Both the position numbers and the translations under genes were made by a program. Below the pieces are notes generated by a model, which did no database searches, was not told where the DNA came from, and saw only the letters and a list, made by a program, of their open reading frames with translations. Shown in pieces: positions 4,345 to 27,761 of a stretch of DNA of 64,000 bases (positions are counted from its first letter, which is position 1; each line of letters opens with the position of its first letter). Origin of the DNA: Ostreococcus lucimarinus (lineage: Eukaryota); the NCBI GenBank assembly GCA_000092065.1, contig CP000589.1, one strand, 5' to 3'.

Positions 4345-4401
4345 CGCGACCGCGCGCTGAACGCTGTTTAATGACGCGCCACGACGTCATTCAACGACGC
4401 C

Positions 4402-5418: not shown

Positions 5419-5474
5419 TACGACGGTCGAATCGACGTGTTCGCTCGTTTGTGGAAATTTGTACTCACATTTTA

Positions 5475-5933: not shown

Positions 5934-6045
5934 GGTGCGCAGGGGATGCGACGACGAATGCCGATGGTGAAGATATTTTTTAGCGTCTAGTCGCAGAGTT
6001 TTATTGATTGAGTTCTATCGCTTGGGCGTCGATCGCGACGTGGTT

Positions 6046-10307: not shown

Positions 10308-12500
10308 ATGACGCTGGCGCGGCGCGGGGCGCGCGCGATGACGTCGATCGCGTCCACGAGCGCGTCGGCGGCGTCGATCGCGCGCGCACGCGATGGTTTG
10401 CGATTGAATGCGCGACTGGGACGCGCGGTGGATGCGCTTTCGCGGGACGAACACCGCGCGTTTCGCGCGAAGGCGATCGCGTTGGCGCGACAGCGCGTGG
10501 GAATGATGACGTCGTATGATGCGGTCACGGAAGAGGCGCTGCGACGGGCGGTGCGGGACGCGTTCGGGGGCGAGCGAGGGGTTCGCGTAGGACGACGCGT
10601 CTCGCGGCGGTTCGACGCGCTGCGCGAAGCGCTGAAAAGATCGAGCGGCGGACGCGTGGTGAACGCGTTGGAGACGAGCGCGGGTGAATTAGATGCGAAA
10701 CAACTCGATGGACGATCAGCTTCGGAGGTAGGCGCAACGAGAGGGCTGGAGGGCGGCGCGCTCGCTTCGTGGGACGACGACATCGAGTGGGGCGCGCGGT
10801 TAAGCAAGCGAAAGCTGCGTAGAGTGGAATCGCCCGTCGACGTCGAGCGAGCGGGAGAAAAATCGTCGGTGGAGGTGAAATATGACGAACTCGATGCCGC
10901 TGTGTACGCAGTGATGCGAAGTCCGATGACGATGGGGGCATTGAAGAGGATTTTGTACGAGACGCGCGATCGCTTGGGCACGAGTTTCAAGCCGAGGAGC
11001 GTTTTAGATTTTGGGTCGGGGCCGGTCCCGACGACTCTGTTCGCCGTGCGCGCGGTTTTCGGAGATGATGTTGGCACGCATGGCGGGCGTGATACCGATG
11101 TTAAGGTGGCGTTCGTCGATAGCAACCCAGGGATGATGCGTTTTGCGAGACGCGTGACTGGATACGCGAAGAATATAGAGCAAGAACGTCGAACGACCGC
11201 GGCGCTTGAACGCGCGTCGACGACGTCAGAGGACAAAATAGGTGTTAGTGAAGAGCTCAGCGACGTTTTAGACGACGTCGACGCGTCTGTGACGCGAGTA
11301 TTGGACTTTAGCGATTTCGAAGCGGTGGAGGATGAGCGCCACGGGTTTCGGCCCGCGAGCGCGTTGAGATTGAAAACGCCTCACCCTTGGCACGAAAGTG
11401 AAGGCATCCGCACGAGCGCGAGTCTTCGTGGCGCCAATCGACGAGGTGGATTTGACGTCGTTGTTTCGTCGTACGCGCTGGGCGAAATTCCCGATAATCA
11501 CGTCGTCAACGCGCGCGGACGCGAAGTGCGAAATCAACGACAGCTCGACGTAACGATTCGTCAGTTATGGGATAAAGTCGCTCCGGGTGGCATCTTAGTC
11601 TTGGCCGAACCTGGAACACCGCGAGGGAGCTTACTCATTCGTCGCGCGAGAGCGATGCTTCTCGACGTTGCTCGACGCGATATGGAACAGGACGCGCGAA
11701 GACTCGACTTTGAACCGAGCGAAGACGCCGTGGAGGCGTACGTCGTGGCGCCTTGCCAGCACGACAAAGCGTGTCCGCTCAAGGATGTCAACGCTGAGGA
11801 TGGCTTTTCGACGTGGTGCCACTTTCCTCAGCGAACGCTGCGAAGCGCGTACGTGCGAGAAATGAAACATGGCGCCAGACCATACCAGGATGAAAAGTTT
11901 TCATACGTCGTACTGCGCAAGATGCGTCGAAGCGCGGCGCGCAGAGACGCCGAGCGCGCGACGCAAGCCGCTCGCGACGCGCTCGCGGCGCAAAAATCCG
12001 CGACTCCGAACGACGAAAGAAACGGAGACGAAGAAGACGAAGAAGACGAAGACGAAGAATATCACGAAAGTCTCGCGCGCGAGTCTTTCGAGGATTGGTC
12101 GCGCGTCATTCGTCAGCCCATGAAGCGTAAAGGCCACGTCGTCTTTGAGCTCTGCGCCCCCTCTGGCGAACTCGAGCGCGTCACCGTCGCCAGATCTCAC
12201 GGCGATCTCATCGGCCGTGACGGCTACAAGTACGCCCGCAAGCTTCGTTGGGGTGATTTATGGCCCTTCACGCACAAAACCGTCGTCAAACCCGGCGATC
12301 AGCGCGCGTTCGAGCTCGAGGCTTCGCGTTTCGAGAGCGACTTTCTTCGGTCTCTCCGTCGCGACCGCGCCGCGCGTCTCGTCGCGTCTCCCGCGCCTCT
12401 CGACCCGATCGCGCGCGACGAGATCGAGATCGAGCTCGACGACGACGAGCTCGACGACGAGCTCGTCGATCTTTGGAATAGCCGCGCCGGCGCGCGCTAG
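10308..12500 (+). CDS. Rsm22/METTL17-family mitochondrial small-subunit methyltransferase-like protein
   Basis: 730-aa ORF. N-terminal presequence. Class I SAM-methyltransferase-like core (VLDFGSGPVPT ... VVVSSYALGEIP). Cys cluster APCQHDKACPL ... WCHF, reminiscent of the Fe-S-binding motif of Rsm22/METTL17. Confidence 0.55.
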   Translation: MTLARRGARAMTSIASTSASAASIARARDGLRLNARLGRAVDALSRDEHRAFRAKAIALARQRVGMMTSYDAVTEEALRRAVRDAFGGERGVRVGRRVSRRFDALREALKRSSGGRVVNALETSAGELDAKQLDGRSASEVGATRGLEGGALASWDDDIEWGARLSKRKLRRVESPVDVERAGEKSSVEVKYDELDAAVYAVMRSPMTMGALKRILYETRDRLGTSFKPRSVLDFGSGPVPTTLFAVRAVFGDDVGTHGGRDTDVKVAFVDSNPGMMRFARRVTGYAKNIEQERRTTAALERASTTSEDKIGVSEELSDVLDDVDASVTRVLDFSDFEAVEDERHGFRPASALRLKTPHPWHESEGIRTSASLRGANRRGGFDVVVSSYALGEIPDNHVVNARGREVRNQRQLDVTIRQLWDKVAPGGILVLAEPGTPRGSLLIRRARAMLLDVARRDMEQDARRLDFEPSEDAVEAYVVAPCQHDKACPLKDVNAEDGFSTWCHFPQRTLRSAYVREMKHGARPYQDEKFSYVVLRKMRRSAARRDAERATQAARDALAAQKSATPNDERNGDEEDEEDEDEEYHESLARESFEDWSRVIRQPMKRKGHVVFELCAPSGELERVTVARSHGDLIGRDGYKYARKLRWGDLWPFTHKTVVKPGDQRAFELEASRFESDFLRSLRRDRAARLVASPAPLDPIARDEIEIELDDDELDDELVDLWNSRAGAR

Positions 12501-12760: not shown

Positions 12761-15418
12761 TTGCGAGCGATGGCGCGCGAAGACGGCGCGCGACGCAAGG
12801 AACGCAAGGACGAGCGCACGGTGGCGATGGAGAAGATGGTGATGGAACTCGCGGCGGCGGCGGCGGTGGTGGATGGGAATAAAACGTCGGTGAGCGAACG
12901 GGCGAGCGGGGCAAGCGGCGGGAGCAGCCTGACGAGGGCGCCGGACGCGGAGCGAGAGCGCGAGGAGGGACAAGCGTTGACGTTGGACGCGTTGGTGATG
13001 GCGAGCGCTGGATCGAATAAAAGAGCGAAGAGCGCGGGCGTTAAAGTGGCGAAACGGAAGAAGATGGAAGATAAGGGGGAGCGAAGGTGGTATTGTTGCT
13101 CGTGCAAGCAGACGCTGACGCCGGAACACTTCGATCCGAATTTGGAGACGTGTCGGTTGTGCTTGGCGAAACGTCGAGCGAAAGATCGGGCGAAGAAACG
13201 ACTTCGAGGGCTTCAGCTCAAGCATCACTTGTTGAGTGCGGATGAGAAAGATGTGGCGGCGTTTTTGTTGGGAGTGTATCATCCGGCGCTCACGCAGCAA
13301 GGGCCGCGATCTTCATCTTTTAACTCCATACAGATGAACGTGCAACGAGCGTCGATGGAAGTGAGCGCATTCGTAGAGGACTTCCGCAGCTTCCTCGAGG
13401 ACAAGCCCAAGGAACAAGCGGACAGATTGGTCCGCACGTTTTTGGGTTTGGACGATGCTGGAGAAAGGCTCACACCTCATCAAGTGATCAACGAGAAGGG
13501 TTCCGCGAAGAGGAATACGATGTCATCCAAAGCGAATAGCGCAAAGGCGACGCACAACTATCGCGCCCCAGCTTCATCGATGGGTGGCCGGCAAGAGTTG
13601 ACGAAGAGCCTGGACACCGTATACGATAAGTACGACGCGCTATTGAAAAACACCAGCGATGATCAAACGTGGGTTCGTTTCGCGGCGGAGAACGAGCAGG
13701 ACACTGATCTGGATGCTGAGAAGGTCAACTATTCCGCACCGATACATGAATCAGCTGCCGAAACCGGCACAAACGAGAAGGATGACGTGTACAGCGCCAT
13801 CATGCACGGCGCGGATCCCACCGTCAGTCATTACCTGTATCAATTCTTGTTCATGAATCAGCCGACAATCGGAGGCGAACACAGCACGATGGTCGTGGAG
13901 AGTGATCTCCCACAGCTTACGGGCCAGCTTCCATTGCGCGCAGTCGATAGCCTTTCGGAAGGGTCCAGCTTAAATGGTGCGACTAATGTGAGCTCGGAAT
14001 CGGACAACGTGTACAACACCTTGGATGAAGAGGAGCTGAACGGCAACGCATACGCGTTCAAGGGCTCGCTCGTGATGGGTTGGATTGGAGGCGCTCGTGA
14101 TGGAAAGAGAGAACTGCTAGCGAAAGAGAACGGTATCCTTCCGGACGATATGCACCCGCAAGCTGTGTTTAGCCATGGAAGACTGTTCGACGCGCGCACG
14201 CCTGGGAAGTTGGTTCCTCTCACCGAGACGGAGAACTTACACGGGTTTTCAGAAGATCTTGCGATTTTCCCCGTCAAGGATTCTTCGTCTGACATCGTTC
14301 GCATTCATATTCCGCCGGGATCTTTCAGCGAGGAGCTCGGTGTGAGAGCGTTGCACGATGGTCACTACATCGATTCTGAACTTCGCCACAGGCGCAACGG
14401 CGGAGCCGAGGTGATCCTATACCCGAACGGTAGAGACGATCGAGAGCGCAACGCAATCGTTATCCTCGGTGCTGTTCATTTACAATGTTTCGTTCGTAGC
14501 GGTACGGCGAAACAGATGCCTATCGGTTGCAACATCCCAGCGCTCTTCATACCGAGCCAAGCGCACGCGAAAGAGATTAGCGATGGCGTAGAGCACATTG
14601 CGCAAGTCAAGGGTACGAAAGCGGCCCGGCAGTTTTTGTCTTCGCTCGCGTACGTACTTGTGCACGGCGAACCAAAGAGCGCTAAGTTTGAGTTTGTCGT
14701 CGAAATGGCGCACATCCTCGCGCTCACGAGAACTTTGGATCTGCTCGAGCGATTGGCGATGTTGGCAAAGTCGTCGCTATCGAGCGATGATTCAGACACT
14801 TCTATCTCCGAAGTAGCGAGATTAGAAGTCTATAAGCCCTCGGATAATTTCTGGCAACACGCCGGTCATACCGACTCTTTTCTTGGAATCCTCCTTTGTC
14901 TTGTTGCGGGATTTATCCGTCTTATCGCTTCGGCTGTGAGCGGAGCGCGACTGAATTATGGATTCTATGCCACGCTCTTGGCCGCGGCCGCGCTTTCGGC
15001 AACGAACCCGAAGACCCGTGTAGACATCAAAAGCATTGCCTTCAACATGCTTTTTATCTGGGCACACGCAGCATCCATGCACTCAGATGATCTGACCAAT
15101 CAAATGACGTCTTACGGCAAGGCGCTGGTCATCACGCTTGCGCTCTCGGCACTGAACGCCTCGCATTCGCGCATGAGCAGCTCGTCAAGCTTTGTGTTAC
15201 CACAGCTCGCCTTTGCCGGAAGTGGCTATAACCCACACACCATTTTCCGCTTTATGAAGCAAGCGTTGCCTCAGGACGGAAGTATACCACAAAACGCGCT
15301 GCGAGCGCACGCCTGGACCGTTCACATCAGTTGCGCACTGCTGGCACCCGCGATCCTCATCTCTTGTATTTCGCAACTTCCAGGTGCACGAGTTCGCTCA
15401 AAATCTAAGCTTGCGTGA
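12761..15418 (+). CDS. large hypothetical protein with N-terminal Cys4 zinc-ribbon-like motif and C-terminal multi-TM region
   Basis: 885-aa ORF. CCSCKQTLTPEHFDPNLETCRLC motif. At least five hydrophobic helices in the last 200 aa. GC content falls sharply inside this gene (start of the low-GC island). No family recognised. Confidence 0.45.
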   Translation: MRAMAREDGARRKERKDERTVAMEKMVMELAAAAAVVDGNKTSVSERASGASGGSSLTRAPDAEREREEGQALTLDALVMASAGSNKRAKSAGVKVAKRKKMEDKGERRWYCCSCKQTLTPEHFDPNLETCRLCLAKRRAKDRAKKRLRGLQLKHHLLSADEKDVAAFLLGVYHPALTQQGPRSSSFNSIQMNVQRASMEVSAFVEDFRSFLEDKPKEQADRLVRTFLGLDDAGERLTPHQVINEKGSAKRNTMSSKANSAKATHNYRAPASSMGGRQELTKSLDTVYDKYDALLKNTSDDQTWVRFAAENEQDTDLDAEKVNYSAPIHESAAETGTNEKDDVYSAIMHGADPTVSHYLYQFLFMNQPTIGGEHSTMVVESDLPQLTGQLPLRAVDSLSEGSSLNGATNVSSESDNVYNTLDEEELNGNAYAFKGSLVMGWIGGARDGKRELLAKENGILPDDMHPQAVFSHGRLFDARTPGKLVPLTETENLHGFSEDLAIFPVKDSSSDIVRIHIPPGSFSEELGVRALHDGHYIDSELRHRRNGGAEVILYPNGRDDRERNAIVILGAVHLQCFVRSGTAKQMPIGCNIPALFIPSQAHAKEISDGVEHIAQVKGTKAARQFLSSLAYVLVHGEPKSAKFEFVVEMAHILALTRTLDLLERLAMLAKSSLSSDDSDTSISEVARLEVYKPSDNFWQHAGHTDSFLGILLCLVAGFIRLIASAVSGARLNYGFYATLLAAAALSATNPKTRVDIKSIAFNMLFIWAHAASMHSDDLTNQMTSYGKALVITLALSALNASHSRMSSSSSFVLPQLAFAGSGYNPHTIFRFMKQALPQDGSIPQNALRAHAWTVHISCALLAPAILISCISQLPGARVRSKSKLA

Positions 15419-15509
15419 GCAAGCGTTGTATGAGATAAGTTTTGGTACCATTACACTCTTTTAACGCTATCATCTACTAAACTGATATTCCGCAAGCTCT
15501 CCAATTGCT

Positions 15510-16553
15510 TCACGTTGCCGCGCCCGTTGTGTACAATTCCATCGCCAAACTCACTAGTGCGATGCTAATGATTATTCGCAGCGGCATCGTCTCGTGTTCG
15601 ATACATACGTGAATGATGGCGACCACGAGCATCGACAGCGCGGACACAAAACATTTGTAAATGTTGTCCAGGTACTTCAGAATGAAAGACACTGCCAACC
15701 CGCCGAACGACAGGACGACCAAACTTACCCAAGCATAAAAGTTGAATCCGGTAAAAAGTCCATTCTTTAACGCTTCTCCTTTCCAAACTATTGGAATCGC
15801 ACCACAAATCACGCCCCAAAAGTACAGTTGCATATTCTGCCAATGAATGCTATCCGTCGCCCCGTCTTGGTTGCTGCCCTTGAGCAGCTTCTCCGACAAC
15901 ACACTCCCGGACGCAGCGATGAACGTGTTTATCACCACAAGCACGTACCCATACACACTCCCGCGTAACTGATTAGAATCTGTGATCTCCGCCGTGACAG
16001 ATCCCAATAATAACAAGAACAGCGCTCTCCACTGCAACGAAGTTAACCGCCGCCCGAGCAGCGTCCACATCAGCACCCCGGTACTTAAAATTTTCAAGTT
16101 ATTCATGATCTGATACGTCGACGGCCCCAGTTCTTGTATGATGAGGAGCATACAGTTATTCGCGACGAAATAGCACAGCGCGGGAAGCGCAAACGAGGTG
16201 AAGCGTTTCGCGCTCCACGTCACTTCTTCGACTCCTCCGCACGCCCGCGACGTCGTCAAAAAGATGAACGACAACACCAGCTTCACCGACTCCATCGTGA
16301 ACGCCAGCACCACGGTATCGTACGGATAATCATCATCACTGTTCCGGCTCAGACTCGCGAATATCGTTCCCGCCACTTGCAGGAACAAGTACGACACCAT
16401 GCTCAACACCTTGATCGACAGCGGCGTTTCCGTCCTTCCGTCGCTCTTCTTCTCGGTCGGCGTCGCATCTCGCGCGAGTTCGCCGTCCGCATCCTTCCCA
16501 TCTCGCGCGAGCAGCGATTCGCGCTCATTCGCGCTCGCGCTCGCGCTCGCCAT
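15510..16553 (-). CDS. nucleotide-sugar transporter (SLC35A/UDP-galactose/CMP-sialic acid transporter family)
   Basis: 347-aa polytopic ORF. Conserved NST blocks (LKILSTGVLMWTLLGRRL, LLLLGSVTA, FALPALCYFVANNCMLLIIQELGPSTYQIMNNLKI). Confidence 0.75.
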   Translation of the reverse strand: MASASASANERESLLARDGKDADGELARDATPTEKKSDGRTETPLSIKVLSMVSYLFLQVAGTIFASLSRNSDDDYPYDTVVLAFTMESVKLVLSFIFLTTSRACGGVEEVTWSAKRFTSFALPALCYFVANNCMLLIIQELGPSTYQIMNNLKILSTGVLMWTLLGRRLTSLQWRALFLLLLGSVTAEITDSNQLRGSVYGYVLVVINTFIAASGSVLSEKLLKGSNQDGATDSIHWQNMQLYFWGVICGAIPIVWKGEALKNGLFTGFNFYAWVSLVVLSFGGLAVSFILKYLDNIYKCFVSALSMLVVAIIHVCIEHETMPLRIIISIALVSLAMELYTTGAAT

Positions 16554-16662
16554 CGCGTCGGTGTCTGCCGCAACGAACGATGGGTGTTACGTCGCGCGAG
16601 CCATCGCGGCAGACGCCGACGCGATTCGCGTCGTTCGCGGACGAAGCGACCGCGCGCGAACC
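16554..16662. promoter_or_regulatory. putative bidirectional promoter between divergently transcribed transporter and methyltransferase genes
   Basis: Only 109 bp separate the start codons at 16553 (minus) and 16663 (plus). This is an inference from gene arrangement only. Confidence 0.3.
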
Positions 16663-17955
16663 ATGGAATGCGTCGATTCTCTCGACGACACCGCGCACGC
16701 GGAGGACGGGCACGAGGAGTACTGCGCGGACACGGCGGTGTCGACGGCGCGCGTCCGGACGCTGCCGAAGACGCGCATCGTCGCGCGAAACGCGTGCGCG
16801 ATCACGGGCGCGAGCGACTTCGAGCCGCTGCTCACGCTGCGAGATTTTCCGGTGGGGATGTACTGCGTCCCGGAGGAGTGGGACGGCGTGGAGTACGTCG
16901 CGGACATGCGATGGTGCGTGAGCAAGAGCTCGGGGGTGATCCAGCTCGCGGAACTCATCGAGGCGGAGACGCTGTATGATTGTCAACACGAGAGCGGCGC
17001 GATCGGAGGACTGTGGAAGCGACATCACGAAGAATTTTGTGAGTTTATCGATGCGTACGGATGTGAGAGCGTGTTGGAGATCGGCAGTGGACACGGACAT
17101 CTGGCGAAGGAGTTTGTCGCGCGAAGACGCGGGAAATGCCGATGGACAATGGTGGAACCGAACTTGCCGAGTTGGTTGCTCACGGGTGATCATCCGAGCG
17201 AAATTCACCCGATCTCGGCGTGGTTTTGTGATTCGTTCGAATTACCGAAAGACGTACCGAAAATCGACGCTGTGGTACATTCGCACACGTTTGAGCACAT
17301 CTACGATTACGACGAGTTTCTTCGCAACGTGGCAAGAATGGAACCCAAGTTTCAAATATTTTCGGTGCCACACCAGCGGGAATGGCTGGCGCGTGGTTGG
17401 CAAAATAGCATCATGTTCGAACACCCGCAACTGTTGACGCCGAAAGCGATCGAGTACATTATGTCACGTCACGGTTTCGAGTTGCAAGGAAAGAAAGTTT
17501 TCGCCGACGGGCACTCAATGTTTTACGCGTTTTCATACGCGGGAAACGCGAGCAAAAGCGAGACATCGCAGCAATCTCTCGATGAGTACGCAGAGAACAA
17601 GCGTCTTTTTCGTAACTGGCTCAAATCCAACGTTGATTTCGTCCAGAATGTGAACGATCGCATCGATGAAGCGACTATGAATGGAGAAAAGCCAACAGTT
17701 TACATGTTTGGGGCGCACATCTTCACGCAGTACCTCGTCAGCTTTGGATTGCGTATATCCGCAGTTGAGGCGATTTTGGATAACGCCGAAGGAAAGCAAG
17801 GAAAGAGACTGTACGGCCTTCCTCTCTTGGTGCACTCTCCGAAAATTCTCTCTAATGTAGAACGACCAATCGTCATCTTACGAGTCGGCGCGTACGCCGA
17901 AGAAATAAAACGCGGCATTCTCGAAGTGAACGCTCGCACGGTCTTTTGGGAGTAA
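16663..17955 (+). CDS. bacterial-type sugar C-methyltransferase (TylC3-like; Methyltransf_13/14 plus C-methyltransferase C-terminal domain)
   Basis: N-terminal Cys-rich Zn-ribbon-like region. SAM motif I VLEIGSGHGHLAKEF. C-terminal domain resembling the C-methyltransferase C-terminal domain (PTVYMFGAHIFTQYLVSFGL). Low GC (about 50%) relative to the window average. The upstream in-frame ORF part (16399-16662) overlaps the transporter gene and is not counted. Confidence 0.6.
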   Translation: MECVDSLDDTAHAEDGHEEYCADTAVSTARVRTLPKTRIVARNACAITGASDFEPLLTLRDFPVGMYCVPEEWDGVEYVADMRWCVSKSSGVIQLAELIEAETLYDCQHESGAIGGLWKRHHEEFCEFIDAYGCESVLEIGSGHGHLAKEFVARRRGKCRWTMVEPNLPSWLLTGDHPSEIHPISAWFCDSFELPKDVPKIDAVVHSHTFEHIYDYDEFLRNVARMEPKFQIFSVPHQREWLARGWQNSIMFEHPQLLTPKAIEYIMSRHGFELQGKKVFADGHSMFYAFSYAGNASKSETSQQSLDEYAENKRLFRNWLKSNVDFVQNVNDRIDEATMNGEKPTVYMFGAHIFTQYLVSFGLRISAVEAILDNAEGKQGKRLYGLPLLVHSPKILSNVERPIVILRVGAYAEEIKRGILEVNARTVFWE

Positions 17956-18025: not shown

Positions 18026-20347
18026 TCACGCCATGACACTTGTCACACCCCGCGCGGCCCACTCGGCGTCGTACAAATGCGTAAACGCATTGGCCAGCCT
18101 TAAAATGTACATGAAGGGAAAGTTGGGTTCGCTGAGCTTGCTCGCATCGATGCACCCGAACCACACAGCCACAAACAAAGGAAATCCAGCCAAAGCGCTG
18201 CTTACTTGTGCGATGCGCTCATCTTTCGGTACGACGACGTTGTCCAACTTTTGCCTAGAATCATAATACGTGTTGACGAGCACTTCGGCCAATTGTTCAA
18301 AGTCCTCTATGTCACAGCTCTCGACGAGAAGGAACACGATGTCTTCGATACCTTGACCTGGGCGCGCGTACTGCCAATCAATAAAGATTGGTTCGCCGCC
18401 GTTCACTTGATAATCCCAGAATAAATTTGGAAATTTGAGGTCACCGTGAAGAAGCGTTTGCGGAGCTCTTCGAAGTCGCAGCTCGGCGTCCGCAAAGTTT
18501 GCCGCCGCGTGGTCAAACAGCACGAAAACTTGTTCACCGAGCGTATTGAACCATCGATTTCGAAACGTTGCGTAGTGTTCTTGCACGTGCTGTCGCATAT
18601 ACGTGTCATAAACCGATAGCCTTCCCAACGGCGCGCCTCGGAAGTGTGAATGCAACCTCGCCATCGTGTTCACCACCTTGAGGCCGCTTTCAAGACAAAA
18701 GTCTGGCGCTCGATCATACTTTCGTAAATCCTCCATGACGATAGCGCGTGACGTCGGAAGGACGCCGTAGCAGATCGGTACACGTACCGGCATGATACTC
18801 GCAAAATCTTCATAGAACTTACACTCGGTGTCGTGAAGGTTCAAGTGTTCGCTCACCTCCATCAAGACTCCGTGATCAGAGTTTTCTTGCTTCACCACAA
18901 GATGTCTTGAACCGGAGGTCGCCGAAAGAATTTCAGAAATGTAGCCACCGCTTGCTCGAATCGGATACACAACGGATCGTTGACCCAATACTTCGGACAG
19001 TTCGTTAGAAAGGTGCGCCACAGAATTCATCGTCTCCAATAACTCCTCTGGGTCTTCAGCGACATAATTCGCGATAAACGAATCGCTGCCTGACACGTTT
19101 GTATTAACAGAGACGACGTATTGGCATCCCGCTGCGCGTCCGGAAATCAAACCGCATCGAGAGTCCTCGAAGACAATGGAGTTTCCGATCGAGACTCCAA
19201 GTCTTCTCGCCGCTTTCAAGTACGGCTCCGCGTTTGGTTTACCAAATCTCACGTCACTCGCGGAAATAAGCGGTAAATCATCCAATGCAAGATGTTTCAA
19301 CAAAGCTTTGGCGGCGGTTCTGTTGGAATTAGTCACTACGGACACTGGTCCGAGCGCACGACACTTTTGCACAAATTCCACCGCGCCTGGAATTTCTTTG
19401 GTCTTTTCGATGTATCGCAAGAACGCTTCGTCTTTCTGCTCTGACGAAATCTGCAGCTTGAAACGCTGCGCGACTTGGGCGTCAGATTGTCCGCTGATGT
19501 GTTTGAGGAAGAATTCTTCGTCGACAAACGCGCCCATCGGAGCGAGGATCTCGCGCCAAGCCGCGACGTAGGCATCCGTGGTGTCCACAAGAGTACCGTC
19601 CAAATCAAACAAAAATGCATATCCCTGTTTGGACAAGTACTGCTCTAAACACTCAGGCGTACCGATGTTCGAGTATTGGTCCTCAGCGATGACGACGGAG
19701 CTGACGTGCTTGTCTCGCGCGACGTACTCTTTCAAAACGCATGAAACGTACGCCTCGCCGCGCTCAAACTTTCCTTCTTGAGTCAAAATATCCTTCGTCA
19801 ATTCAAGAAATTCTTTTTCACTCGCGAACCAGTACGCTCCAGTGTTCGCGTAAGGACCCACGCGCGACTTCTCCGCGATTTTGGTCACGCGTCCGCCGTC
19901 CCCGCTCGTCTCAACGTATGAATATTTTGCCGCCGTCTCACGCTCACGCGCGGATTCCTCAAAGCACAGGACCGCCGCGCGCACCTCCGGTTGTTTTTCC
20001 AGCGCCCGAAACCGTTCGATGACGTCGCAATGATACACCGCATCGCAGTCCACCAACAGGAGCGACGCGTCGTTTGTCGCCGACACCGTCCCCAGCGCGA
20101 GCGCCGCCGTCTCCGCCGCCCCGACCGTCGCACGCGCCAAGCGCACCGTGGTGAACCCTCGTTCGGGGACGGAATCATCGAAATTCGTCACCACGACGCA
20201 CGTGTCGCGGTTGTCATCGACGCACAGCGCTTCCGTGACGACGTGTATCATCGCCTTGCCGATCACTGGGATGAGCGGCTTGATGTCTTCGTAGCCTTGC
20301 GCTCGGAAGCGCTCGCCGCGTCCACACGCTGGAATGAGGACGCGCAT
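18026..20347 (-). CDS. tri-domain fusion: sugar-phosphate nucleotidyltransferase (MurU/LicC-like) + HAD beta-phosphoglucomutase-like phosphatase + choline-kinase/aminoglycoside-phosphotransferase-like kinase (AmgK-like)
   Basis: 773-aa ORF. N-terminal MRVLIPACGRGERF ... IKPLIPVIGKAMIHV (nucleotidyltransferase GxGxR motif). Central YAFLFDLDGTLVDTT ... SIVFEDSRCGLISGRAAG (HAD motifs I-III). C-terminal LLHGDLKFPNLFW (Brenner motif) and IDWQYARPGQGIEDIVFLLVE (ChoK/APH motif). Confidence 0.7.
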   Translation of the reverse strand: MRVLIPACGRGERFRAQGYEDIKPLIPVIGKAMIHVVTEALCVDDNRDTCVVVTNFDDSVPERGFTTVRLARATVGAAETAALALGTVSATNDASLLLVDCDAVYHCDVIERFRALEKQPEVRAAVLCFEESARERETAAKYSYVETSGDGGRVTKIAEKSRVGPYANTGAYWFASEKEFLELTKDILTQEGKFERGEAYVSCVLKEYVARDKHVSSVVIAEDQYSNIGTPECLEQYLSKQGYAFLFDLDGTLVDTTDAYVAAWREILAPMGAFVDEEFFLKHISGQSDAQVAQRFKLQISSEQKDEAFLRYIEKTKEIPGAVEFVQKCRALGPVSVVTNSNRTAAKALLKHLALDDLPLISASDVRFGKPNAEPYLKAARRLGVSIGNSIVFEDSRCGLISGRAAGCQYVVSVNTNVSGSDSFIANYVAEDPEELLETMNSVAHLSNELSEVLGQRSVVYPIRASGGYISEILSATSGSRHLVVKQENSDHGVLMEVSEHLNLHDTECKFYEDFASIMPVRVPICYGVLPTSRAIVMEDLRKYDRAPDFCLESGLKVVNTMARLHSHFRGAPLGRLSVYDTYMRQHVQEHYATFRNRWFNTLGEQVFVLFDHAAANFADAELRLRRAPQTLLHGDLKFPNLFWDYQVNGGEPIFIDWQYARPGQGIEDIVFLLVESCDIEDFEQLAEVLVNTYYDSRQKLDNVVVPKDERIAQVSSALAGFPLFVAVWFGCIDASKLSEPNFPFMYILRLANAFTHLYDAEWAARGVTSVMA

Positions 20348-20572: not shown

Positions 20573-21208
20573 CTAGCACGTGGGTCCACGCGCCGCGGGC
20601 CGCTCGGGAGGCGCCGGCTTGGCCGCCGCCGAGCCCGCGGCCTCAGCCTCAGCCGCGGCCGCGGCCGCGCGCTTCTCGAGCCAGTCTTTGGCTCGCTCGC
20701 GGTATTTAGCGTTCGCCTCTGTACTAATCTTGTTTGCCGCGTTACAGGCATTGATCATCGTCGTGTTGCCCTCAGAGATTCCGTGACACCAATGCACACC
20801 CATCCCGTCGCGATCCGGCCACGCCGAGTGCCCTAACGATATGCCGCGACGGACGTTGCAGTGGGCGTAGTCCGCCACGTGAAAAATAGATGCCTCAGGA
20901 CTCATTTGTGAACGGGGACTTACGCACGCGACGCTTTTCAATACATCCGTTCCTTGACCCCAAAAAGCATTGGCGCGCGAACTGTGCACGACGTAAAAGG
21001 CGTCGTTGTACTTCCAATACCAGTCCTCGTCAAAGATAAGCGTAGGTTGGACAGCGTCCGTGTCGTGGTTCGTGTCCCGACCGTCCCACAACGTCCTGGC
21101 AAAGTCCACGGGCGGTGGCGCGTACCAAAAGTACTCGGGTCGACCGTGCATGTACCACGAAAAGTGTATGTTTTTCTCCTTCTCCACTTTACGCGCCATG
21201 CAAAGCAA
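20573..21208 (-). pseudogene. truncated tandem paralog (C-terminal half only, no TM anchor) of the downstream 21237-22394 type-II membrane protein; possible pseudogene or truncated soluble paralog
   Basis: 211-aa ORF begins at the position homologous to residue ~190 of the neighbour (LCMARKVEKEKNIHFSWYMHGRPEYFWYAPPPVDF versus LCMARKVEQEKNIHFSWFVRSRPDYFWYGPPPVDF). About 80% nucleotide identity over about 280 bp. Both end in GPTC-stop. Confidence 0.4.
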
Positions 21209-21236: not shown

Positions 21237-22394
21237 CTAGCACGTCGGTCCCATCGATTGCATCGGCGGGTCGTCGGCGTACGCGTTCAAAGAGCGCCAG
21301 TGGCTTACTTGCGCTCGGTAAACTTTAGTCTCTGACACACTAATTGCCTGGGCACGCTCGCACGGATGTATGTGCCTCTGAAGTGTGTAATCTACGCAAC
21401 TCAGCGTACCTTGTCCTGGCTTTGCGGTTGGCCGAGCCGATCGCTCGAACCCGATTCCCACGGCCCTCGACGCCGCCCCGACGAGGTCTACCACTTTGTG
21501 AAGGGCTGTCTCCGGAGTCATACGTTCAAGGAAGACGTGACCGGTCGCGGGGATCTCAGCTCGGCATGGTAATTTCGACAAAATCGATGACCCTGGGCCC
21601 AGTATACCATCGGCGTGCGAACTGTGCACGGCGTATAAGGCGTCGTTGTACTTGTGACGCCAATCCTCGTCAAAGATGAACGCGTGCGCGCTGTCTGTAC
21701 CCCTACCGTCCCACAACGTCGTGGCAAAGTCCACGGGCGGCGGCCCGTACCAAAAGTAATCGGGTCGACTCCGAACGAACCACGAAAAGTGTATGTTTTT
21801 CTCCTGCTCCACTTTGCGCGCCATGCAAAGCAGCCTTTTGCTCAAATCGAACTGCGCGTACGTCGTCGCCGGCGAAAAGTAGTCGTCTTTTTTCACCTTG
21901 AATCCACGCGCAGCGCAATGCTGTCCCCAAGGATCCTTCGTGTCTAAGTCATAAGCCGAGGCCGTGTAAAACGAAACCGCCACGGGTCGAATGACGTCCA
22001 GCGCGCGTTGCAGCACGTGCGGATACACCTTTGGAAACATCGCCGATCGGTCTCGCCACCCGCTCACGTCTGCGATACTCAGGAGCATGATCGGGTGCAC
22101 GTTCACGCAGCGCTCCGCCATCCAATCCAGCACATTCGTCTTCAAACCCTTGGAGACGTGATCCAACACCATCCCGCGCACCGATCCTCCGATGAGGAAC
22201 GCGACGTCCGCGCGTCCCTCCGCGCACGACTGCGCGCCGAGCGCGTCGCGCCGCGCCGTCGCCGACGCGACGACGATCGCCACCGCCGCGATCAGCGACA
22301 ATAACGACCCAACGCGCGTCCGTCGCGCGCTCCTAGAGCCATCATCGCCGATGAGCGGCGTCGCCTCGTCCGTCATCGCGCCGCGAACACCCAT
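21237..22394 (-). CDS. type-II membrane protein (short cytosolic N-terminus, signal anchor, lumenal domain), lineage-specific; possibly glycosyltransferase-like
   Basis: 385-aa ORF. TM VGSLLSLIAAVAIVVASA. Conserved-looking blocks NIHFSWF, YFWYGPPPVDF, IFDEDW. No named family recognised. Confidence 0.5.
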   Translation of the reverse strand: MGVRGAMTDEATPLIGDDGSRSARRTRVGSLLSLIAAVAIVVASATARRDALGAQSCAEGRADVAFLIGGSVRGMVLDHVSKGLKTNVLDWMAERCVNVHPIMLLSIADVSGWRDRSAMFPKVYPHVLQRALDVIRPVAVSFYTASAYDLDTKDPWGQHCAARGFKVKKDDYFSPATTYAQFDLSKRLLCMARKVEQEKNIHFSWFVRSRPDYFWYGPPPVDFATTLWDGRGTDSAHAFIFDEDWRHKYNDALYAVHSSHADGILGPGSSILSKLPCRAEIPATGHVFLERMTPETALHKVVDLVGAASRAVGIGFERSARPTAKPGQGTLSCVDYTLQRHIHPCERAQAISVSETKVYRAQVSHWRSLNAYADDPPMQSMGPTC

Positions 22395-22455: not shown

Positions 22456-22598
22456 GACGCGCGTCGGTTTTCGCGTCGCCGCACCGCGCGCGCGATGGTG
22501 CGTCGCACAGTGCGACGCCGATGCATCGCATCGCGCGCGTCGCCATGTCCTCGGCGCCCCTGCACGACGCGCGCGCGCGCGGAAGGATGTCCGACGCG
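22456..22598 (+). repeat. dispersed duplicate of the 5' UTR / start-codon / transit-peptide region of the S9 peptidase gene (original at 24904-25046), with an extra 31-bp local tandem copy at 22421-22451
   Basis: About 143 bp, about 99% identical to 24904-25046, including atgcatcgcatcgcgcgcgtcgccatgtcctcggcg. Confidence 0.8.
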
Positions 22599-22619
22599 AA
22601 GGATGTCCGACGTATCAAT

Positions 22620-23029
22620 ACGTCGACGGCCCCAGTTCTTGTATGATGAGGAGCATACAGTTATTCGCGACGAAATAGCACAGCGCGGGAAGCGCAAACG
22701 AGGTGAAGCGTTTCGCGCTCCACGTCACTTCTTCGACTCCTCCGCACGCCCGCGACGTCGTCAAAAAGATGAACGACAACACCAGCTTCACCGACTCCAT
22801 CGTGAACGCCAGCACCACGGTATCGTACGGATAATCATCATCACTGTTCCGGCTCAGACTCGCGAATATCGTTCCCGCCACTTGCAGGAACAAGTACGAC
22901 ACCATGCTCAACACCTTGATCGACAGCGGCGTTTCCGTCCTTCCGTCGCTCTTCTTCTCGGTCGGCGTCGCATCTCGCGCGAGTTCGCCGTCCGCATCCT
23001 TCCCATCTCGCGCGAACAGCGGTTCGCGA
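22620..23029 (-). pseudogene. duplicated fragment of the nucleotide-sugar transporter gene (copy of 16114-16523, N-terminal ~145 codons without start codon)
   Basis: About 410 bp nearly identical to 16114-16523. The fragment lacks the first ~10 codons. It is fused in an ORF (22615-23565) to sequence antisense of the GT25 gene, so it is treated as a chimeric pseudogene. Confidence 0.7.
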
Positions 23030-23188: not shown

Positions 23189-24742
23189 ATGAGTGACAAA
23201 GACGCGCAAAGCATCTCTCGCGGCGAGCGCTCGAATTTGCTCGCGCGCAACGCCGCGAACGGCGTCGTTGAGGGTGTTGCGAGCATCCTGGACGAAGAGC
23301 GCGGTGAGACCGACGTGAGCGAGCGATCCCGAGCGAGAACGTCGACGTCGCGAGGATGTCTCGCGAGTGTTGCGCTGATGGCGTGTGCGGTCGGCGCGGG
23401 GATGGCGGTCGCGTCGCGCGGGGGGGTCGACGACGCGAGGACGAGCGCACGAGCTCGCGGCGGTGGGAAATCGACGCTCGGGATCAGTGGAGCGACACGA
23501 GCTCGCGGCGGTGGGAAATCGACGCTCGGGATCAGTGGAGCGACGGGAGTGCGGACGTATATCATAGCAGATACGTCGCCCGGAGACGAGATGGAGAGAT
23601 CTAGGAAAGGACGCGATTACGTGTTCAACCTGTTCAAAACGCACGGTGGTTTGAGCGACGCCGAAGCGCGCAATACTGTGGAAATCTCGAGTGCGACGTT
23701 TCCTTCGCTTTGGCCGGATACCTTCGAGACAGCGCGAAGCGCGACGCACGATGTACTAGCGGGAGCCCTTGCTGCTTCAGAAGCGAACGTTCCAACCAGT
23801 GAGTTGCCGTATCCCATCAGACAGGTTCACGAATCGCAGCTCAATCCACAGCACCGTTGCGTCGGCGAAAAATGCGTATTCCCGTATAACCACCACCTTG
23901 GATGTCTTCTATCTCACATGTCTGTGTGGAAGAAAGCTATTTCGCGAGGTGAGGATCGGTTTGCCGTGTGGGAGCAAGATGGTATGGGGATCGCTTCCGT
24001 GAGCCCGCTTGACTACACAGAGCTCGGACGCCAGCTTCCTCGCGACGCAGATATGGTCTGGCTCCTCCCCATTGGAAGAAGCACCGGTCAATTCGTGAAA
24101 AAGTTCCGCTCAAGGGCGTTTGGCACGTGGGGGAAAGGTACCTGGGGTCTCGTAAAGACAGACTGGTCGCCCGAATCGATGCACACGGCGATGAATTCAA
24201 CGCACGTTTATTTGTACAAGTGGAACAAAATGTGCTCGTGGGCAGGAACGGCAGCTCTCATGTTCACCAAGCAAGGCGTCGAGAAAATTCTTCGGTACAG
24301 TACCGAACACAGTCTCGACATGATCGATGCTTTCCTCATTGGCGGATGCATCCATAAATCGGGAAAGACGAGTCGTCTTTCCTTGAACTGTTATCACGCG
24401 TCGAGCGTGCCAACCAAGAAAGAGCTCCTGGGTGGAATCGTGCCCGATTGGTACACTGACGAAACCGTGGGCGATCGAGCACTTCCTCAAGAGCAGGTTG
24501 ACGCCATGGATCGGGATGACGCCAAGTTCAACTCGCTTGGTTGTCAGCGCGGCGGCGACGAGTTCAAGTCAAAATCTGCCTGGATTCCCACGTCCTGGGC
24601 TGGAGACGACTCCGCGGATTCGTGCGTTCCCTCCTGGAACGCCCCGGTGGACGTGTGCGATGCATCCGTGAAGTATCCACTCGATGGACACAAGTACTCA
24701 TACCTCGGCAGCGCGATGTTGCGTACAAAGCCCGAGCGTTAG
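23189..24742 (+). CDS. glycosyltransferase family 25 (Lic2A/LPS-beta-1,4-galactosyltransferase-like) type-II membrane protein
   Basis: 517-aa ORF. Signal anchor CLASVALMACAVGAGMAVA. GT25 hallmark GCLLSHMSVWKKAISRGEDRFAVWEQD. Internal 48-bp tandem duplication encoding ARGGGKSTLGISGAT twice in the stem. Confidence 0.6.
   Translation: MSDKDAQSISRGERSNLLARNAANGVVEGVASILDEERGETDVSERSRARTSTSRGCLASVALMACAVGAGMAVASRGGVDDARTSARARGGGKSTLGISGATRARGGGKSTLGISGATGVRTYIIADTSPGDEMERSRKGRDYVFNLFKTHGGLSDAEARNTVEISSATFPSLWPDTFETARSATHDVLAGALAASEANVPTSELPYPIRQVHESQLNPQHRCVGEKCVFPYNHHLGCLLSHMSVWKKAISRGEDRFAVWEQDGMGIASVSPLDYTELGRQLPRDADMVWLLPIGRSTGQFVKKFRSRAFGTWGKGTWGLVKTDWSPESMHTAMNSTHVYLYKWNKMCSWAGTAALMFTKQGVEKILRYSTEHSLDMIDAFLIGGCIHKSGKTSRLSLNCYHASSVPTKKELLGGIVPDWYTDETVGDRALPQEQVDAMDRDDAKFNSLGCQRGGDEFKSKSAWIPTSWAGDDSADSCVPSWNAPVDVCDASVKYPLDGHKYSYLGSAMLRTKPER
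23449..23544 (+). repeat. perfect 48-bp tandem duplication inside the GT25 coding region
   Basis: acgagctcgcggcggtgggaaatcgacgctcgggatcagtggagcgac occurs twice consecutively (23449-23496 and 23497-23544). Confidence 0.9.
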
Positions 24743-24968
24743 CGACGCTTGTAAAGAAACAGCCTAGGGGTGCTTGAATCCGGTATTGGGAATTTCCCGA
24801 TACGTATCAAAAACGACTGTTTTCATACTGTTTGCCCATACGAAAAGCCTAATACGTTGATACGCCAATACGGTATCAGCTCGTATCAAGTGCAGCAGGC
24901 CTAGACGCGCGTCGGTTTTCGCGTCGCCGCACCGCGCGCGCGATGGTGCGCGGCACAGTGCGACGCCG

Positions 24969-27761
24969 ATGCATCGCATCGCGCGCGTCGCCATGTCCTC
25001 GGCGCCCCTGCACGACGCGCGCGCGCGCGGAAGGATGTCCGACGCGAAACGCGCGCTCGTCGCGCGCGCGAGAGGCGCGTTCGACGCCGTCGCGGGACGG
25101 CGTCGACGCGTGAACGTCGCGAGCGGTGGTGACGAACGCGGGACGACGACGCGGGAGGACGCGCGCGCGAGCGATGGGGACGACGCGAACGGGTACCGAC
25201 GCCCGCCGGACGCGCTGACGCAGTTCACGGAGCGACCGCAGAGCCCGAACGTGACGGTGTCGCCCGATCGAAGGCGCTTGCTGTATTTGCACAAACCGCC
25301 GCCGCTGCCGGACGTGGCGACGCTCGCGCGAGAGGAGGTGAAACTGGCGGGCGTGCGGATCGATGCGGCGCAAAATTCGACGTCGAGGATGGGACATCAA
25401 ACGAAATTGGCGATCGGAGCGATGCCTGCGAGAGAGGAGGAGATCGGAGCGGCGGAAGATTTCGTCGGGACTCCGGAGAACGCGCTGATTAACTACGTGA
25501 GTTGGTCGCCGGATGGGACAAAGATAGCGTTTACGACGCGCTCGAGCGGAGAACCGGGTGAGCCAGAGCGAGGACCGTTGACACTTTGGATCGCCGACGC
25601 GCACACGCGACAGTGCCGAGTGCTGCTTCCCGATCGTGGGTTGAATACTATTTTTGAGTCGTACAGTTGGTTGAACGACGACGTCATCGTCGCGTGTTGC
25701 ATTCCAGAAAATCGACCCAAGGAAGCGCCGAAGCGACCGCAGACGCCGTTCGGGCCGAGAATTCAAACAAACCGAGGTGGTAACGTGGCACAGGCGCGAA
25801 CGTACGCCGATTTATTGAAAGACTCGCACGATGCGGATTTATTCGATTACTATTGTTCGTCGGAACTCGTGGCGGTGGACGTCTCCACCGGGGCGACGAA
25901 GACTTGGGGTGATGGAAAGGCGAGAATCTACACGCGCTGCGATCCGTCGCCCGACGGAAAATATGCTATCGTCGAAGCCATTCATCGGCCCTACTCGTAC
26001 TCGGTGCCGTGTGGTAGGTTTCCAAAGAAGGTTTGGGTGGCGGACAGCGACGGCAAAGTCGTGCGCGAGGTCGCGGACTTACCTTTGGCCGAGAATGTGC
26101 CCATCGTGCACAACGCCACGCGTAAAGGACCTCGTGCGGTGAACTGGCGTTCGGATAAGAGTGCGTCGTTGTACTGGACCGAGGCGCAAGATGAGGGTGA
26201 TCCGAGAGTCGAAGTCTCCCCTCGAGACGTCACGTACACGGTCGACGTCGGCAAAGATCCTGCGGCGACGCCCAAGACGCTGTTTCAAACTGATTATCGC
26301 TACGGTGGCGTCGCATGGGGCGGCGATGATATGTCGATTTTATATGAGAGTTGGTACAAGACACGCACGTCGCGAGTGTGGGTGACTTCGCCGGGCGACG
26401 CCGATCCGAATGCGACAAAGCGCATGCTTTGGGAGCGCGACTACGAAGACAGTTACAACGCTCCCGGTTCATTTGCTACACGCCGGACGGAAGATGGATC
26501 GTACATTCTGGCGCGTGTCGTCGGACCGACGCCGTTGGGAGAAGGTAAACCCACGGGTCCGGGAGTGAAGCTGTTGTTGCAGGGAGACGGCGCGAATCCA
26601 GAAGGCGATAGACCCTTCATCGACTTGTTCGACGTCGACACCGGCGCCAAGCATCGAATGTGGGAAAGCAAACCGCCGTATTTGGAGCATCCGGGGAGTT
26701 TGATCAGCGATTACGGCGGCCCCGAGGCGGCGCCTGTCACGCTCGAAACTATGCGCATATTGTTCTCTCGAGAGAGCCCGTCGGAGAATTCGCAATTCTT
26801 TTCGCTTCAAATGACCGCCGACGGCTCGCCCGGAAAAGAGGTGAAAATTTCAAATTTCCCTCATCCACATCCCGACTTAAAGGAGCTGCCGAAGGAAATA
26901 ATCAAGTACAAGCGCGACGACGGCGTTGAGCTCAACGGCACGCTGTACACGCCGCCCGGGTACGACGCCGCGCACGATGGTCCGCTACCACTCCTGATGT
27001 GGGCTTATCCACGAGAGTTCAAAACAAAAGAAGCTGCATCGCAGCTACGCGATTCACCGTATCGCTTCACCGGTATCGGCCCATCGAGCGCGTTGGTGTG
27101 GCTTGCGCGTGGATACGCAGTGCTCGACGGGCCGGCGTTGCCCATCATCGGCGAAGGCGAGGGTGTGGAACCGAACGATACGTACGTCGAACAACTCGTC
27201 GCTGGCGCGCGTGCGGCGGTGAACGAAGTCGTTGCGCGCGGTGTCGCGGATCCGGAGCGCATCGCTGTCGGCGGTCACTCGTATGGCGCGTTCATGGCGG
27301 CGAATTTGCTCGCGCACGCACCGGATTTGTTCGCGTGCGCCATCGCGCGAAGCGGGGCATACAATCGAACGCTAACGCCTTTCGGGTTTCAAGCCGAAGA
27401 ACGCACGCTGTGGGAAGCGCCGGAAACGTACAACGCGATGTCACCGTTCATGAACGCGCACAAGATTAAAAAGCCGATTTTATTGATCCACGGCGAGGAG
27501 GATCAAAACAGCGGTACCCATCTCATGCAATCCGAACGCTTCTTCTCCGCTCTCAAGGGTAACGGTGCCGAGGTCAAGCTTGTCATTTTACCGCACGAGT
27601 CTCACGGCTATCGCGCCAAAGAAAGCATCAACCACATGCTCGCCGAGACGTCTGATTGGCTGGACGCGCACTGCGCGCCAGGGGCGAAGAAAGCCGCCGA
27701 GGCGCGCGCGGAGGAAGCCGCCAAGGCGAAGCGCGACGCCGAGGAGATGGTTTCGAAGTAA
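24969..27761 (+). CDS. S9-family serine peptidase, glutamyl-endopeptidase (chloroplast CGEP)-like, with N-terminal targeting peptide
   Basis: 930-aa ORF. Beta-propeller region then alpha/beta-hydrolase domain with catalytic triad context GGHSYGAFMAANLL (GxSxG), LIHGEEDQNSG (Asp), LPHESHGY (His). Confidence 0.8.
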   Translation: MHRIARVAMSSAPLHDARARGRMSDAKRALVARARGAFDAVAGRRRRVNVASGGDERGTTTREDARASDGDDANGYRRPPDALTQFTERPQSPNVTVSPDRRRLLYLHKPPPLPDVATLAREEVKLAGVRIDAAQNSTSRMGHQTKLAIGAMPAREEEIGAAEDFVGTPENALINYVSWSPDGTKIAFTTRSSGEPGEPERGPLTLWIADAHTRQCRVLLPDRGLNTIFESYSWLNDDVIVACCIPENRPKEAPKRPQTPFGPRIQTNRGGNVAQARTYADLLKDSHDADLFDYYCSSELVAVDVSTGATKTWGDGKARIYTRCDPSPDGKYAIVEAIHRPYSYSVPCGRFPKKVWVADSDGKVVREVADLPLAENVPIVHNATRKGPRAVNWRSDKSASLYWTEAQDEGDPRVEVSPRDVTYTVDVGKDPAATPKTLFQTDYRYGGVAWGGDDMSILYESWYKTRTSRVWVTSPGDADPNATKRMLWERDYEDSYNAPGSFATRRTEDGSYILARVVGPTPLGEGKPTGPGVKLLLQGDGANPEGDRPFIDLFDVDTGAKHRMWESKPPYLEHPGSLISDYGGPEAAPVTLETMRILFSRESPSENSQFFSLQMTADGSPGKEVKISNFPHPHPDLKELPKEIIKYKRDDGVELNGTLYTPPGYDAAHDGPLPLLMWAYPREFKTKEAASQLRDSPYRFTGIGPSSALVWLARGYAVLDGPALPIIGEGEGVEPNDTYVEQLVAGARAAVNEVVARGVADPERIAVGGHSYGAFMAANLLAHAPDLFACAIARSGAYNRTLTPFGFQAEERTLWEAPETYNAMSPFMNAHKIKKPILLIHGEEDQNSGTHLMQSERFFSALKGNGAEVKLVILPHESHGYRAKESINHMLAETSDWLDAHCAPGAKKAAEARAEEAAKAKRDAEEMVSK

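Follow-up and report, generated by a model that had tools for sequence, protein, structure and literature searches.

The usual synthesis of a nucleotide sugar relies on a mutase and a pyrophosphorylase that are separate enzymes. In the heptose nucleotide pathways, HddA/GmhB/HddC and HldE/GmhB, the kinase acts first and the route passes via a bisphosphate, HldE being a natural fusion of a kinase and a nucleotidyltransferase. Two other natural kinase-nucleotidyltransferase fusions, FKP (L-fucokinase/GDP-fucose pyrophosphorylase) and LicCA, serve salvage activation; FKP uses a GHMP kinase, and both proteins are devoid of a HAD domain. In acarbose synthesis, AcbU, AcbJ and AcbR successively convert V7P into V1,7PP, V1P and GDP-valienol (PMC9200736). 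The salvage of MurNAc by MupP, AmgK and MurU in Pseudomonas leads from the sugar-6-phosphate to the free sugar, the sugar-1-phosphate and the UDP-sugar (PMC5371407, PMC5371409). Here, we describe a gene of the picoalga Ostreococcus lucimarinus in which a nucleotidyltransferase, a HAD phosphohydrolase and a kinase are fused in a single polypeptide. The gene is located in a stretch of 64,000 nucleotides (assembly GCA_000092065.1, contig CP000589.1), hereafter designated as the window. With a slight leaning in its favour, we read the product as a cytosolic trifunctional enzyme making a nucleotide-activated sugar for Golgi or surface glycans, and only tentatively place the phosphatase step first.

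The three-domain fusion gene (18026..20347, minus strand) is a complete and uninterrupted open reading frame (ORF) with an ATG start, encoding 773 amino acids (aa). Pfam searches revealed three mutually non-overlapping regions, matching NTP_transferase (PF00483; aa 4-234, E 2.3e-9, 37.7 bits for a cut-off of 21.2), HAD_2 (aa 246-411, E 3.9e-22, 79.7 bits for a cut-off of 23.8), and APH (aa 557-689, E 1.5e-10, 41.7 bits for a cut-off of 23.2), the last also matching EcKL above threshold (aa 579-697, E 6.4e-10). On this basis, the protein can be divided into a sugar-1-phosphate nucleotidyltransferase domain (19628..20347, aa 1-240) with GxGxR, K23, D100/D102 and E159-K160, a HAD-IA phosphohydrolase domain of the C1-cap, DxD type (19013..19627, aa 241-445) with motifs I-IV and Asp289, and an APH/choline-kinase/EcKL-fold small-molecule kinase domain (18029..19012, aa 446-773) with K486, E508, HGDxKxxN and DWQ, all three encoded on the minus strand. 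A preliminary description of the window, made from the sequence alone, had proposed this ORF with its three domains; the ORF proved exact, the motifs quoted are present in the translation, and NTP_transferase, HAD_2 and APH/EcKL all pass the Pfam gathering thresholds. The same description had raised the possibility of an ORF split by frameshifts. Yet the identical protein was predicted from two assemblies made independently of each other (ENA ERZ27284406 and Logan SRR28368981) which, together with close homologues that are colinear and 762-776 aa long, makes a frameshift or a chimeric-assembly artefact very unlikely. A chance ORF is excluded by the 118 homologues found in database searches, most of them full length and colinear and nearly all with the same three domains. 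The full-length AlphaFold2 model reached a predicted local distance difference test score (pLDDT) of 92.1 and a predicted template modelling score (pTM) of 0.78, values that suggest a defined arrangement between the domains, and the kinase domain modelled alone reached 92.4 and 0.91, respectively. Since the first beta-strand of the nucleotidyltransferase begins at residue 2, with no N-terminal extension ahead of it, the protein has no targeting peptide and is presumably cytosolic.

Residue conservation was analysed in an alignment of 48 full-length relatives, 14 of them from the algal group and the remaining 34 more distant (28-34% identity). In the nucleotidyltransferase domain, G9, G11, R13, K23, D100, D102 and K160 are invariant and E159 is conserved in 98% of the sequences. 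The HAD domain displays invariant D248, D250, T252, K370, E394 and D395, with T339 conserved at 90% or more and N342 belonging to the positions that are either invariant or at least 90% conserved. This last category also covers K486, E508, H634-G-D636-x-K638-xx-N641 and D657-W-Q659 in the kinase, in which positions 598 and 750 (K/R) are basic in 85-90% of the sequences. Based on the conservation of these catalytic signatures, all three activities appear to be under selection, and no domain looks degenerate.

Comparison of the nucleotidyltransferase profile with the Protein Data Bank (PDB) identified 4evw as the nearest structure (E 1e-25), a Vibrio cholerae protein annotated as a 'nucleoside-diphosphate-sugar pyrophosphorylase', for which a literature search for a published function gave a single mention, on a crystallisation-prediction server. 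UGPase, GDP-mannose pyrophosphorylases, RmlA and GlmU come next (1e-10 to 1e-13), followed by the HddC-type structures 6jq8 and 5xhw (2e-9 to 6e-9), while the match with GalU-type UDP-glucose pyrophosphorylases is confined to the N-terminal nucleotide loop. The preliminary description had also noted a resemblance to MurU, which cannot be extended to orthology: 4y7t, which we take to be MurU, matches profile positions 1-54 only (E 5.4e-6), far more weakly than 4evw, UGPase, the GDP-mannose pyrophosphorylases, RmlA and GlmU. A stand-alone protein of the 4evw subfamily was found in Cryobacterium inferilacus, 29% identical to the nucleotidyltransferase domain (E 2e-22) and sharing with it the GxGxRF, TxGAAET, DCD, YSYV and EK motifs. 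Its gene belongs to an operon (274-6724) encoding GtrA, a HAD_2 protein, an LPG_synthase_TM-like 715-aa membrane protein, a GT2 glycosyltransferase, the 4evw-type nucleotidyltransferase and an unassigned 605-aa protein; the HAD protein is 29% identical to the HAD domain of the fusion, the genes are separate, and none of them encodes a kinase. Thus, 4evw and its Cryobacterium homologue fall in the same nucleotidyltransferase subfamily as the fusion but, unlike the fusion, are single-domain proteins without a kinase. These comparisons also bear on a module of the LicA/LicC type, in which a CDP-activated alcohol (choline, ethanolamine or a polyol) would be produced for the phospho-decoration of glycans or lipids, with the HAD domain supplying or regulating the alcohol. 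We give this alternative very little credence, since the match with LicC (1jyk) reaches only 1.7e-5 over the first ~65 profile positions, against 1e-10 to 1e-25 for enzymes acting on sugar-1-phosphates, and the gene neighbourhoods described below argue in the same direction.

The HAD domain passed the subfamily IA model TIGR01509 (56.9 bits for a cut-off of 29.4). Its best matches, with the PGMB-YqaB subfamily ranking first in NCBIfam (6.5e-25), also include sugar phosphatases, glycerol-3-phosphatase and the BT2127 pyrophosphatase, all far under their equivalog cut-offs, and the bisphosphate phosphatase CbbY is part of the same HAD subgroup. Models failed for MupP (NF009696, 45.4 bits for a cut-off of 359), beta-phosphoglucomutase (beta-PGM; TIGR01990, 56.7 bits for 189.4) and the BT2127-type inorganic pyrophosphatase (NF053653, 63.6 bits for 245). 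A mutase of the beta-PGM type, converting to sugar-1-phosphate a sugar-6-phosphate made by the kinase from the free sugar and thereby preparing it for activation, would agree with the top rank of PGMB-YqaB and would make sense of the HAD and nucleotidyltransferase pair in the kinase-less Cryobacterium operon. The L. lactis enzyme, in a provisional alignment at low identity, has its D8, D10, T16, K76, K145, E169 and D170 kept in the HAD domain. However, in this same alignment its distal phosphate clamp, Arg49, is replaced by the invariant Asp289 and His20 by the invariant Tyr260, which would remove the needed distal phosphate site and disfavours mutase chemistry. With the equivalog model failing as well, the beta-PGM-type assignment of the preliminary description was not borne out at the equivalog level, and a mutase is hardly probable at all. 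The residue following HAD motif II (R/K343) occupies a region where beta-PGM holds distal-phosphate residues; the distal phosphate site of that enzyme comprises Arg49, Ser116, Lys117 and Asn118.

An inorganic pyrophosphatase of the BT2127/PpaX type is another way to account for the HAD domain, which would then pull the reversible nucleotidyltransferase reaction in an assembly of kinase, pyrophosphorylase and pyrophosphatase working on a free sugar. The top three PDB matches of the domain include BT2127 structures (E about 1e-15), NCBIfam models for inorganic diphosphatase and PpaX gave 1.8e-17 and 1.7e-9, respectively, and the Cryobacterium operon associates a related HAD protein with the same nucleotidyltransferase subfamily in the absence of a kinase. 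Yet the key Glu47 of BT2127 lies in an insertion that is absent from the fusion family, the score of 63.6 is far under the equivalog cut-off of 245, and proteins combining HAD and kinase domains without a nucleotidyltransferase are common and fit this scheme poorly; a pyrophosphatase is therefore highly improbable. Asp289 was considered as an equivalent of Glu47 and rejected, as the alignment places Glu47 within the missing insertion.

The kinase domain has the APH/choline-kinase fold anticipated in the preliminary description, but the specific closeness to AmgK or NahK that it suggested was not recovered: choline kinases are at least as near to the domain as the AmgK-like 3csv or NahK, and its fold gives no pointer to the substrate. 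Searching 1.84 billion representative proteins with the kinase profile returned 223 matches at E<=1e-30. Most of the matches listed resemble the three-domain form in being 760-860 aa long and in carrying the kinase around aa 450-800. Five scanned matches of 549-638 aa are complete HAD and kinase proteins without a nucleotidyltransferase domain, which suggests that HAD and kinase form the functional core, and one match of 1321 aa displays a nucleotidyltransferase-HAD-kinase-kinase order.

The homologues fall into an algal and a giant-virus group. Members of the algal group share 49-100% identity with the window protein, and the only one with an organism name is an Ostreococcus tauri protein annotated as 'Aminoglycoside phosphotransferase', an orthologue with the same three domains and 62% identity. 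The O. tauri gene lies on CAID01000019.2, corresponding to chromosome 19, the small outlier known as the "viral immunity" chromosome, in contrast to the window gene, which has housekeeping genes on its flanks. It adjoins a Methyltransf_23 gene, two GT25 genes and a TPT transporter gene, and this order of neighbours matches it to ostta19g00470 in S2 Table of Yau et al. 2016. In that table, log2 fold changes in O. tauri resistant to the virus OtV5 are -1.29 for ostta19g00460 (C-methyltransferase), -1.90 for ostta19g00470, -2.56 for ostta19g00480 (GT25) and -1.24 for ostta19g00490 (TPT). The O. tauri fusion gene is thus part of a gene block expressed in the virus-susceptible state. The identifier ostta19g00470 is absent from the main texts in the literature searched.

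The giant-virus group comprises full-length relatives of about 800 aa with 27-33% identity. Scanning IMG/VR yielded 253 loci, many of them named GVMAG, on contigs of up to 421 kb. Contigs with distant relatives carry genes for TBP, DNA methyltransferases, a Ski2-like helicase, dUTPase, an RNB nuclease and many glycosyltransferases. Neighbouring genes were counted in 80 giant-virus loci: a major capsid protein gene of nucleocytoplasmic large DNA viruses (NCLDV) occurs near the fusion gene in nine of them (median distance 3.7 kb, minimum 60 bp) and a viral rhodopsin gene in eight, which hints at alga-infecting relatives of Mimiviridae. A bacterial origin of the distant homologues was considered and rejected on account of the TBP, Ski2-like helicase, RNB, NCLDV capsid and rhodopsin genes and of the GVMAG names. 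One contig whose product is listed at NCBI as 'HAD family hydrolase [bacterium]' encodes TBP, two cytosine DNA methyltransferases, a PAP2_C protein and a Collar-domain protein, and has the appearance of a giant-virus contig that was assigned to a bacterial bin. When 185,579 bacterial and archaeal species were scanned with one genome each, kinase-specific peptide patterns included, the best 80 matches had a single domain each, HAD or, once, nucleotidyltransferase. The wider search called for in the preliminary description thus found the fusion in O. tauri and on giant-virus contigs, and not among these best 80 prokaryote matches. No three-domain match was found in BFVD, which covers viral proteins of UniProt, and the viral members are therefore so far known from metagenomes only. 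The best BFVD match to the full-length model was A0A1V0SE67 of Indivirus ILV1, representing a separate giant-virus family of ~630-aa proteins with a nucleotidyltransferase domain. On one viral contig, a gene for a 627-aa protein (14407-16290) with a weak NTP_transf_3 match is found 2 kb from the three-domain gene and possibly belongs to this Indivirus-type family. In a neighbour-joining tree of the nucleotidyltransferase and HAD region, rooted with the Cryobacterium pair, the algal clade is monophyletic and sister to all viral sequences; as long-branch effects could explain this topology, the tree was uninformative regarding the direction of transfer.

Both genes that the preliminary description had placed beside the fusion gene turned out to be real. 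On its downstream flank (lower coordinates) are a TylC3/MtmC-like S-adenosylmethionine-dependent methyltransferase gene (16399..17955, plus strand; Methyltransf_23, 5e-13) and, adjoining it, an SLC35A-type nucleotide-sugar transporter gene (15510..16553, minus strand; Pfam Nuc_sug_transp, 9e-41). The methyltransferase aligns over its full length, but weakly (E 5e-4), with the D-mycarose 3-C-methyltransferase MtmC (4rv9); its true start is probably near 16663, since gene calling on a metagenome contig gave the same gene a length of 430 aa. A viral protein family is homologous to this methyltransferase (E 3e-21 across some 390 aa), and its members were found in 18 of the 80 viral loci, with a median separation of 640 bp between them and the fusion gene. 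The window, O. tauri and viruses hence have in common a fusion gene paired with a methyltransferase gene. GT25 genes, which flank the O. tauri orthologue, recur in viral loci as well, where other recurrent neighbours encode GT4-like, GT11 and RXYLT1/GT47-like glycosyltransferases, a NanM-like sugar O-methyltransferase and a NAD epimerase/dehydratase. Attempts to deduce the substrate from conserved neighbours failed, the most frequent one being present in 22 of the 80 loci. As for a CDP-alcohol module, Pfam annotation revealed no LicD-type transferase among the annotated genes of the loci examined or in the 20 commonest viral neighbour clusters. The commonest immediately adjacent viral cluster, a frequent downstream neighbour, had been a candidate PAP2_C family; it proved dissimilar to the single gene annotated as PAP2_C, which also speaks against that module. 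A DUF7796 neighbour common to alga and virus is not claimed, as the Pfam matches are weak and pairwise BLAST shows no similarity.

Taken together, a sugar-1-phosphate type of nucleotidyltransferase, an adjacent transporter and neighbourhoods rich in glycosyltransferases and methyltransferases, in three independent genomic settings, make a nucleoside diphosphate (NDP)-sugar for Golgi or surface glycan synthesis the likely product. A phosphatase and a kinase in one pathway are sensible if they act on different positions, the net result being the move of a phosphate to C1. HAD and kinase would thus shift the phosphate from a non-anomeric position (C6) to C1 at the cost of one ATP and replace a phosphomutase. 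In the sequence of steps that we put forward tentatively, the HAD phosphatase would convert a sugar-6-phosphate into the free sugar, the anomeric kinase would convert this sugar into the sugar-1-phosphate, and the nucleotidyltransferase would yield the NDP-sugar and pyrophosphate. Afterwards, the TylC3-like methyltransferase would modify the product, the transporter, its presumed importer into the Golgi, would take it up, and neighbouring glycosyltransferases would use it. The characterised APH-fold kinases that feed nucleotidyltransferases, NahK and AmgK, use free sugars, and an invariant Asp in the HAD cap occupies the place where a second phosphate would sit. These two observations argue for the phosphatase acting first, but the case for this order is weak.

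The reverse order, in which the kinase would phosphorylate C1 of a sugar-6-phosphate or sugar-7-phosphate, the HAD domain would strip the distal phosphate and the nucleotidyltransferase would activate the resulting sugar-1-phosphate, has the advantage that every intermediate remains phosphorylated. The basic residues at kinase positions 598 and 750, R/K343 after HAD motif II, the HAD subgroup shared with CbbY and the matches of HddC-type structures to the nucleotidyltransferase profile all fit such a route. It is also the order of the only demonstrated de novo uses found for a triad of kinase, HAD phosphatase and nucleotidyltransferase, AcbU/AcbJ/AcbR (PMC9200736) and the heptose pathways. Against this stand the invariant Asp289 at the Arg49 position in the provisional, low-identity alignment with beta-PGM, and the affiliation of GmhB and HddA with other subfamilies or folds, which reduces the heptose comparison to an analogy. 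Moreover, we know of no APH-fold kinase that accepts a sugar phosphate, which also counts against this order, and we regard it as unlikely. Returning to the phosphatase-first enzyme, several points weigh against it. It implies a free-sugar intermediate, the known de novo precedents go kinase first via a bisphosphate, and kinase positions 598 and 750 together with HAD R/K343 could hold a second phosphate. None of the domains reaches an equivalog-level cut-off, the kinase fold lies at an equal distance from choline, homoserine, antibiotic and sugar kinases, and the best PDB sequence match of the kinase is marginal (E 0.03). Finally, some algal homologues have no methyltransferase neighbour, and no neighbour is universal in the viral loci. 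Domains, conserved catalytic residues, distribution and gene linkage are observed; substrate class, sugar, nucleotide and step order are inferred, as are the parts played by the methyltransferase and by the enzyme in the cell.

In the window, the fusion gene is part of a glycan island of about 12.7-24.9 kb lying between housekeeping genes, with ALG11, HDAC, YchF and Rsm22 on one side and a chloroplast glutamyl endopeptidase, a protein kinase, PIG-L and Prp19 on the other. The immediate flanks are Rsm22 (10308-12500) and the glutamyl endopeptidase, an S9 peptidase (24969-27761, plus strand); among named organisms, the best match of this peptidase is from Coccomyxa (53%), with none from Ostreococcus or Micromonas. 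Upstream of the fusion gene (higher coordinates) are two tandem paralogous ORFs on the minus strand (20573-21208, with no Pfam match, and 21237-22394, with a sub-threshold DUF7796 match), whose membership in the pathway is uncertain, and a 517-aa ORF with a weak GT25 match (23189..24742, plus strand). Beside the transporter is an 885-aa ORF with a TTG start and no Pfam match (12761-15418, plus strand); the same gene, 882 aa long, holds the same position in a metagenome contig. A strong low-GC island was not confirmed, the dip being only modest: GC is 0.534 and third-position GC (GC3) 0.615 in the fusion gene, against 0.57-0.64 and 0.67-0.80 in most measured genes outside the island. Several repeats were observed. 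A 300-nt stretch at the 5' end of the transporter gene (16113-16412) is copied with 100% identity 6.5 kb away (22618-22917), a 145-nt repeat (22456-22600 and 24904-25048) is 99% identical, and the two tandem paralogous ORFs share blocks of 79-90% identity. These are recent segmental duplications. Elsewhere, the window encodes a GT49 'dystroglycan-type' glycosyltransferase (33317-35338, plus strand; 4e-29), the PIG-L GlcNAc-PI de-N-acetylase (30576-31403, plus strand; 8.5e-23), the ALG11 mannosyltransferase (131-1807, minus strand; 1e-68) and a homologue of the cilia- and flagella-associated CFAP58 (54213-56675, minus strand; Pfam 7.5e-44), the last of which points to an organism with flagella.

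Literature searches returned no description of a nucleotidyltransferase-HAD-kinase fusion or of the activity of any member. The preliminary description had held the architecture to be undescribed, which stands as far as biochemistry is concerned, but the fusion is already annotated in public databases and listed in one published table of expression data. The domain families and the pathway logic are already known, and the three-domain fusion is without a published biochemical description that we could find. What is new is a family common to picoalgae and many uncultured giant viruses that travels with a TylC3-like methyltransferase, and the placement of its O. tauri member in the block associated with virus susceptibility. 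If the proposed function is true, one polypeptide would lead from a phosphate ester or a free sugar to the activated form, a compact and portable cassette of the type expected to be exchanged by viruses or hypervariable host chromosomes. The family would connect the glycan genes of the Mamiellales "viral immunity" chromosome with the large glycosylation gene sets of uncultured giant viruses and, once identified, its product would be a tangible candidate for a sugar acting as virus receptor or camouflage. The fusion could also serve as a one-enzyme tool in the chemoenzymatic synthesis of NDP-sugars. A bolder version, which we consider rather unlikely, is a mutase-independent synthase of a rare NDP-sugar, perhaps methyl-branched, methylated or amino, acting with the TylC3-like methyltransferase; the sugar would be displayed on the algal surface and on giant-virus capsids, the gene would have moved horizontally between viruses and picoalgae, and the glycan would decide virus susceptibility. 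This last role is suggested by the O. tauri block being switched down in resistant cells.

Among described systems, MupP/AmgK/MurU involves the same three superfamilies (HAD phosphatase, APH-fold kinase and NTP_transferase) and the same net chemistry as proposed here. These are, however, three separate proteins, whereas the window encodes a single polypeptide whose family is found in an alga and in giant viruses lacking peptidoglycan recycling. The salvage route invoked in the preliminary description is thus retained as pathway logic and abandoned as orthology, since the MupP model failed and MurU matches the N-terminal part only. The heptose pathways and AcbU/AcbJ/AcbR likewise use triads of kinase, HAD phosphatase and nucleotidyltransferase in replacement of a mutase, as proposed for the fusion, but pass through a bisphosphate, with GmhB belonging to a HAD subfamily different from that of the fusion. 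Their kinases have GHMP and PfkB folds, unlike the APH fold found here. Set against these systems, the fusion is a candidate virus-host glycan precursor enzyme built from familiar parts.

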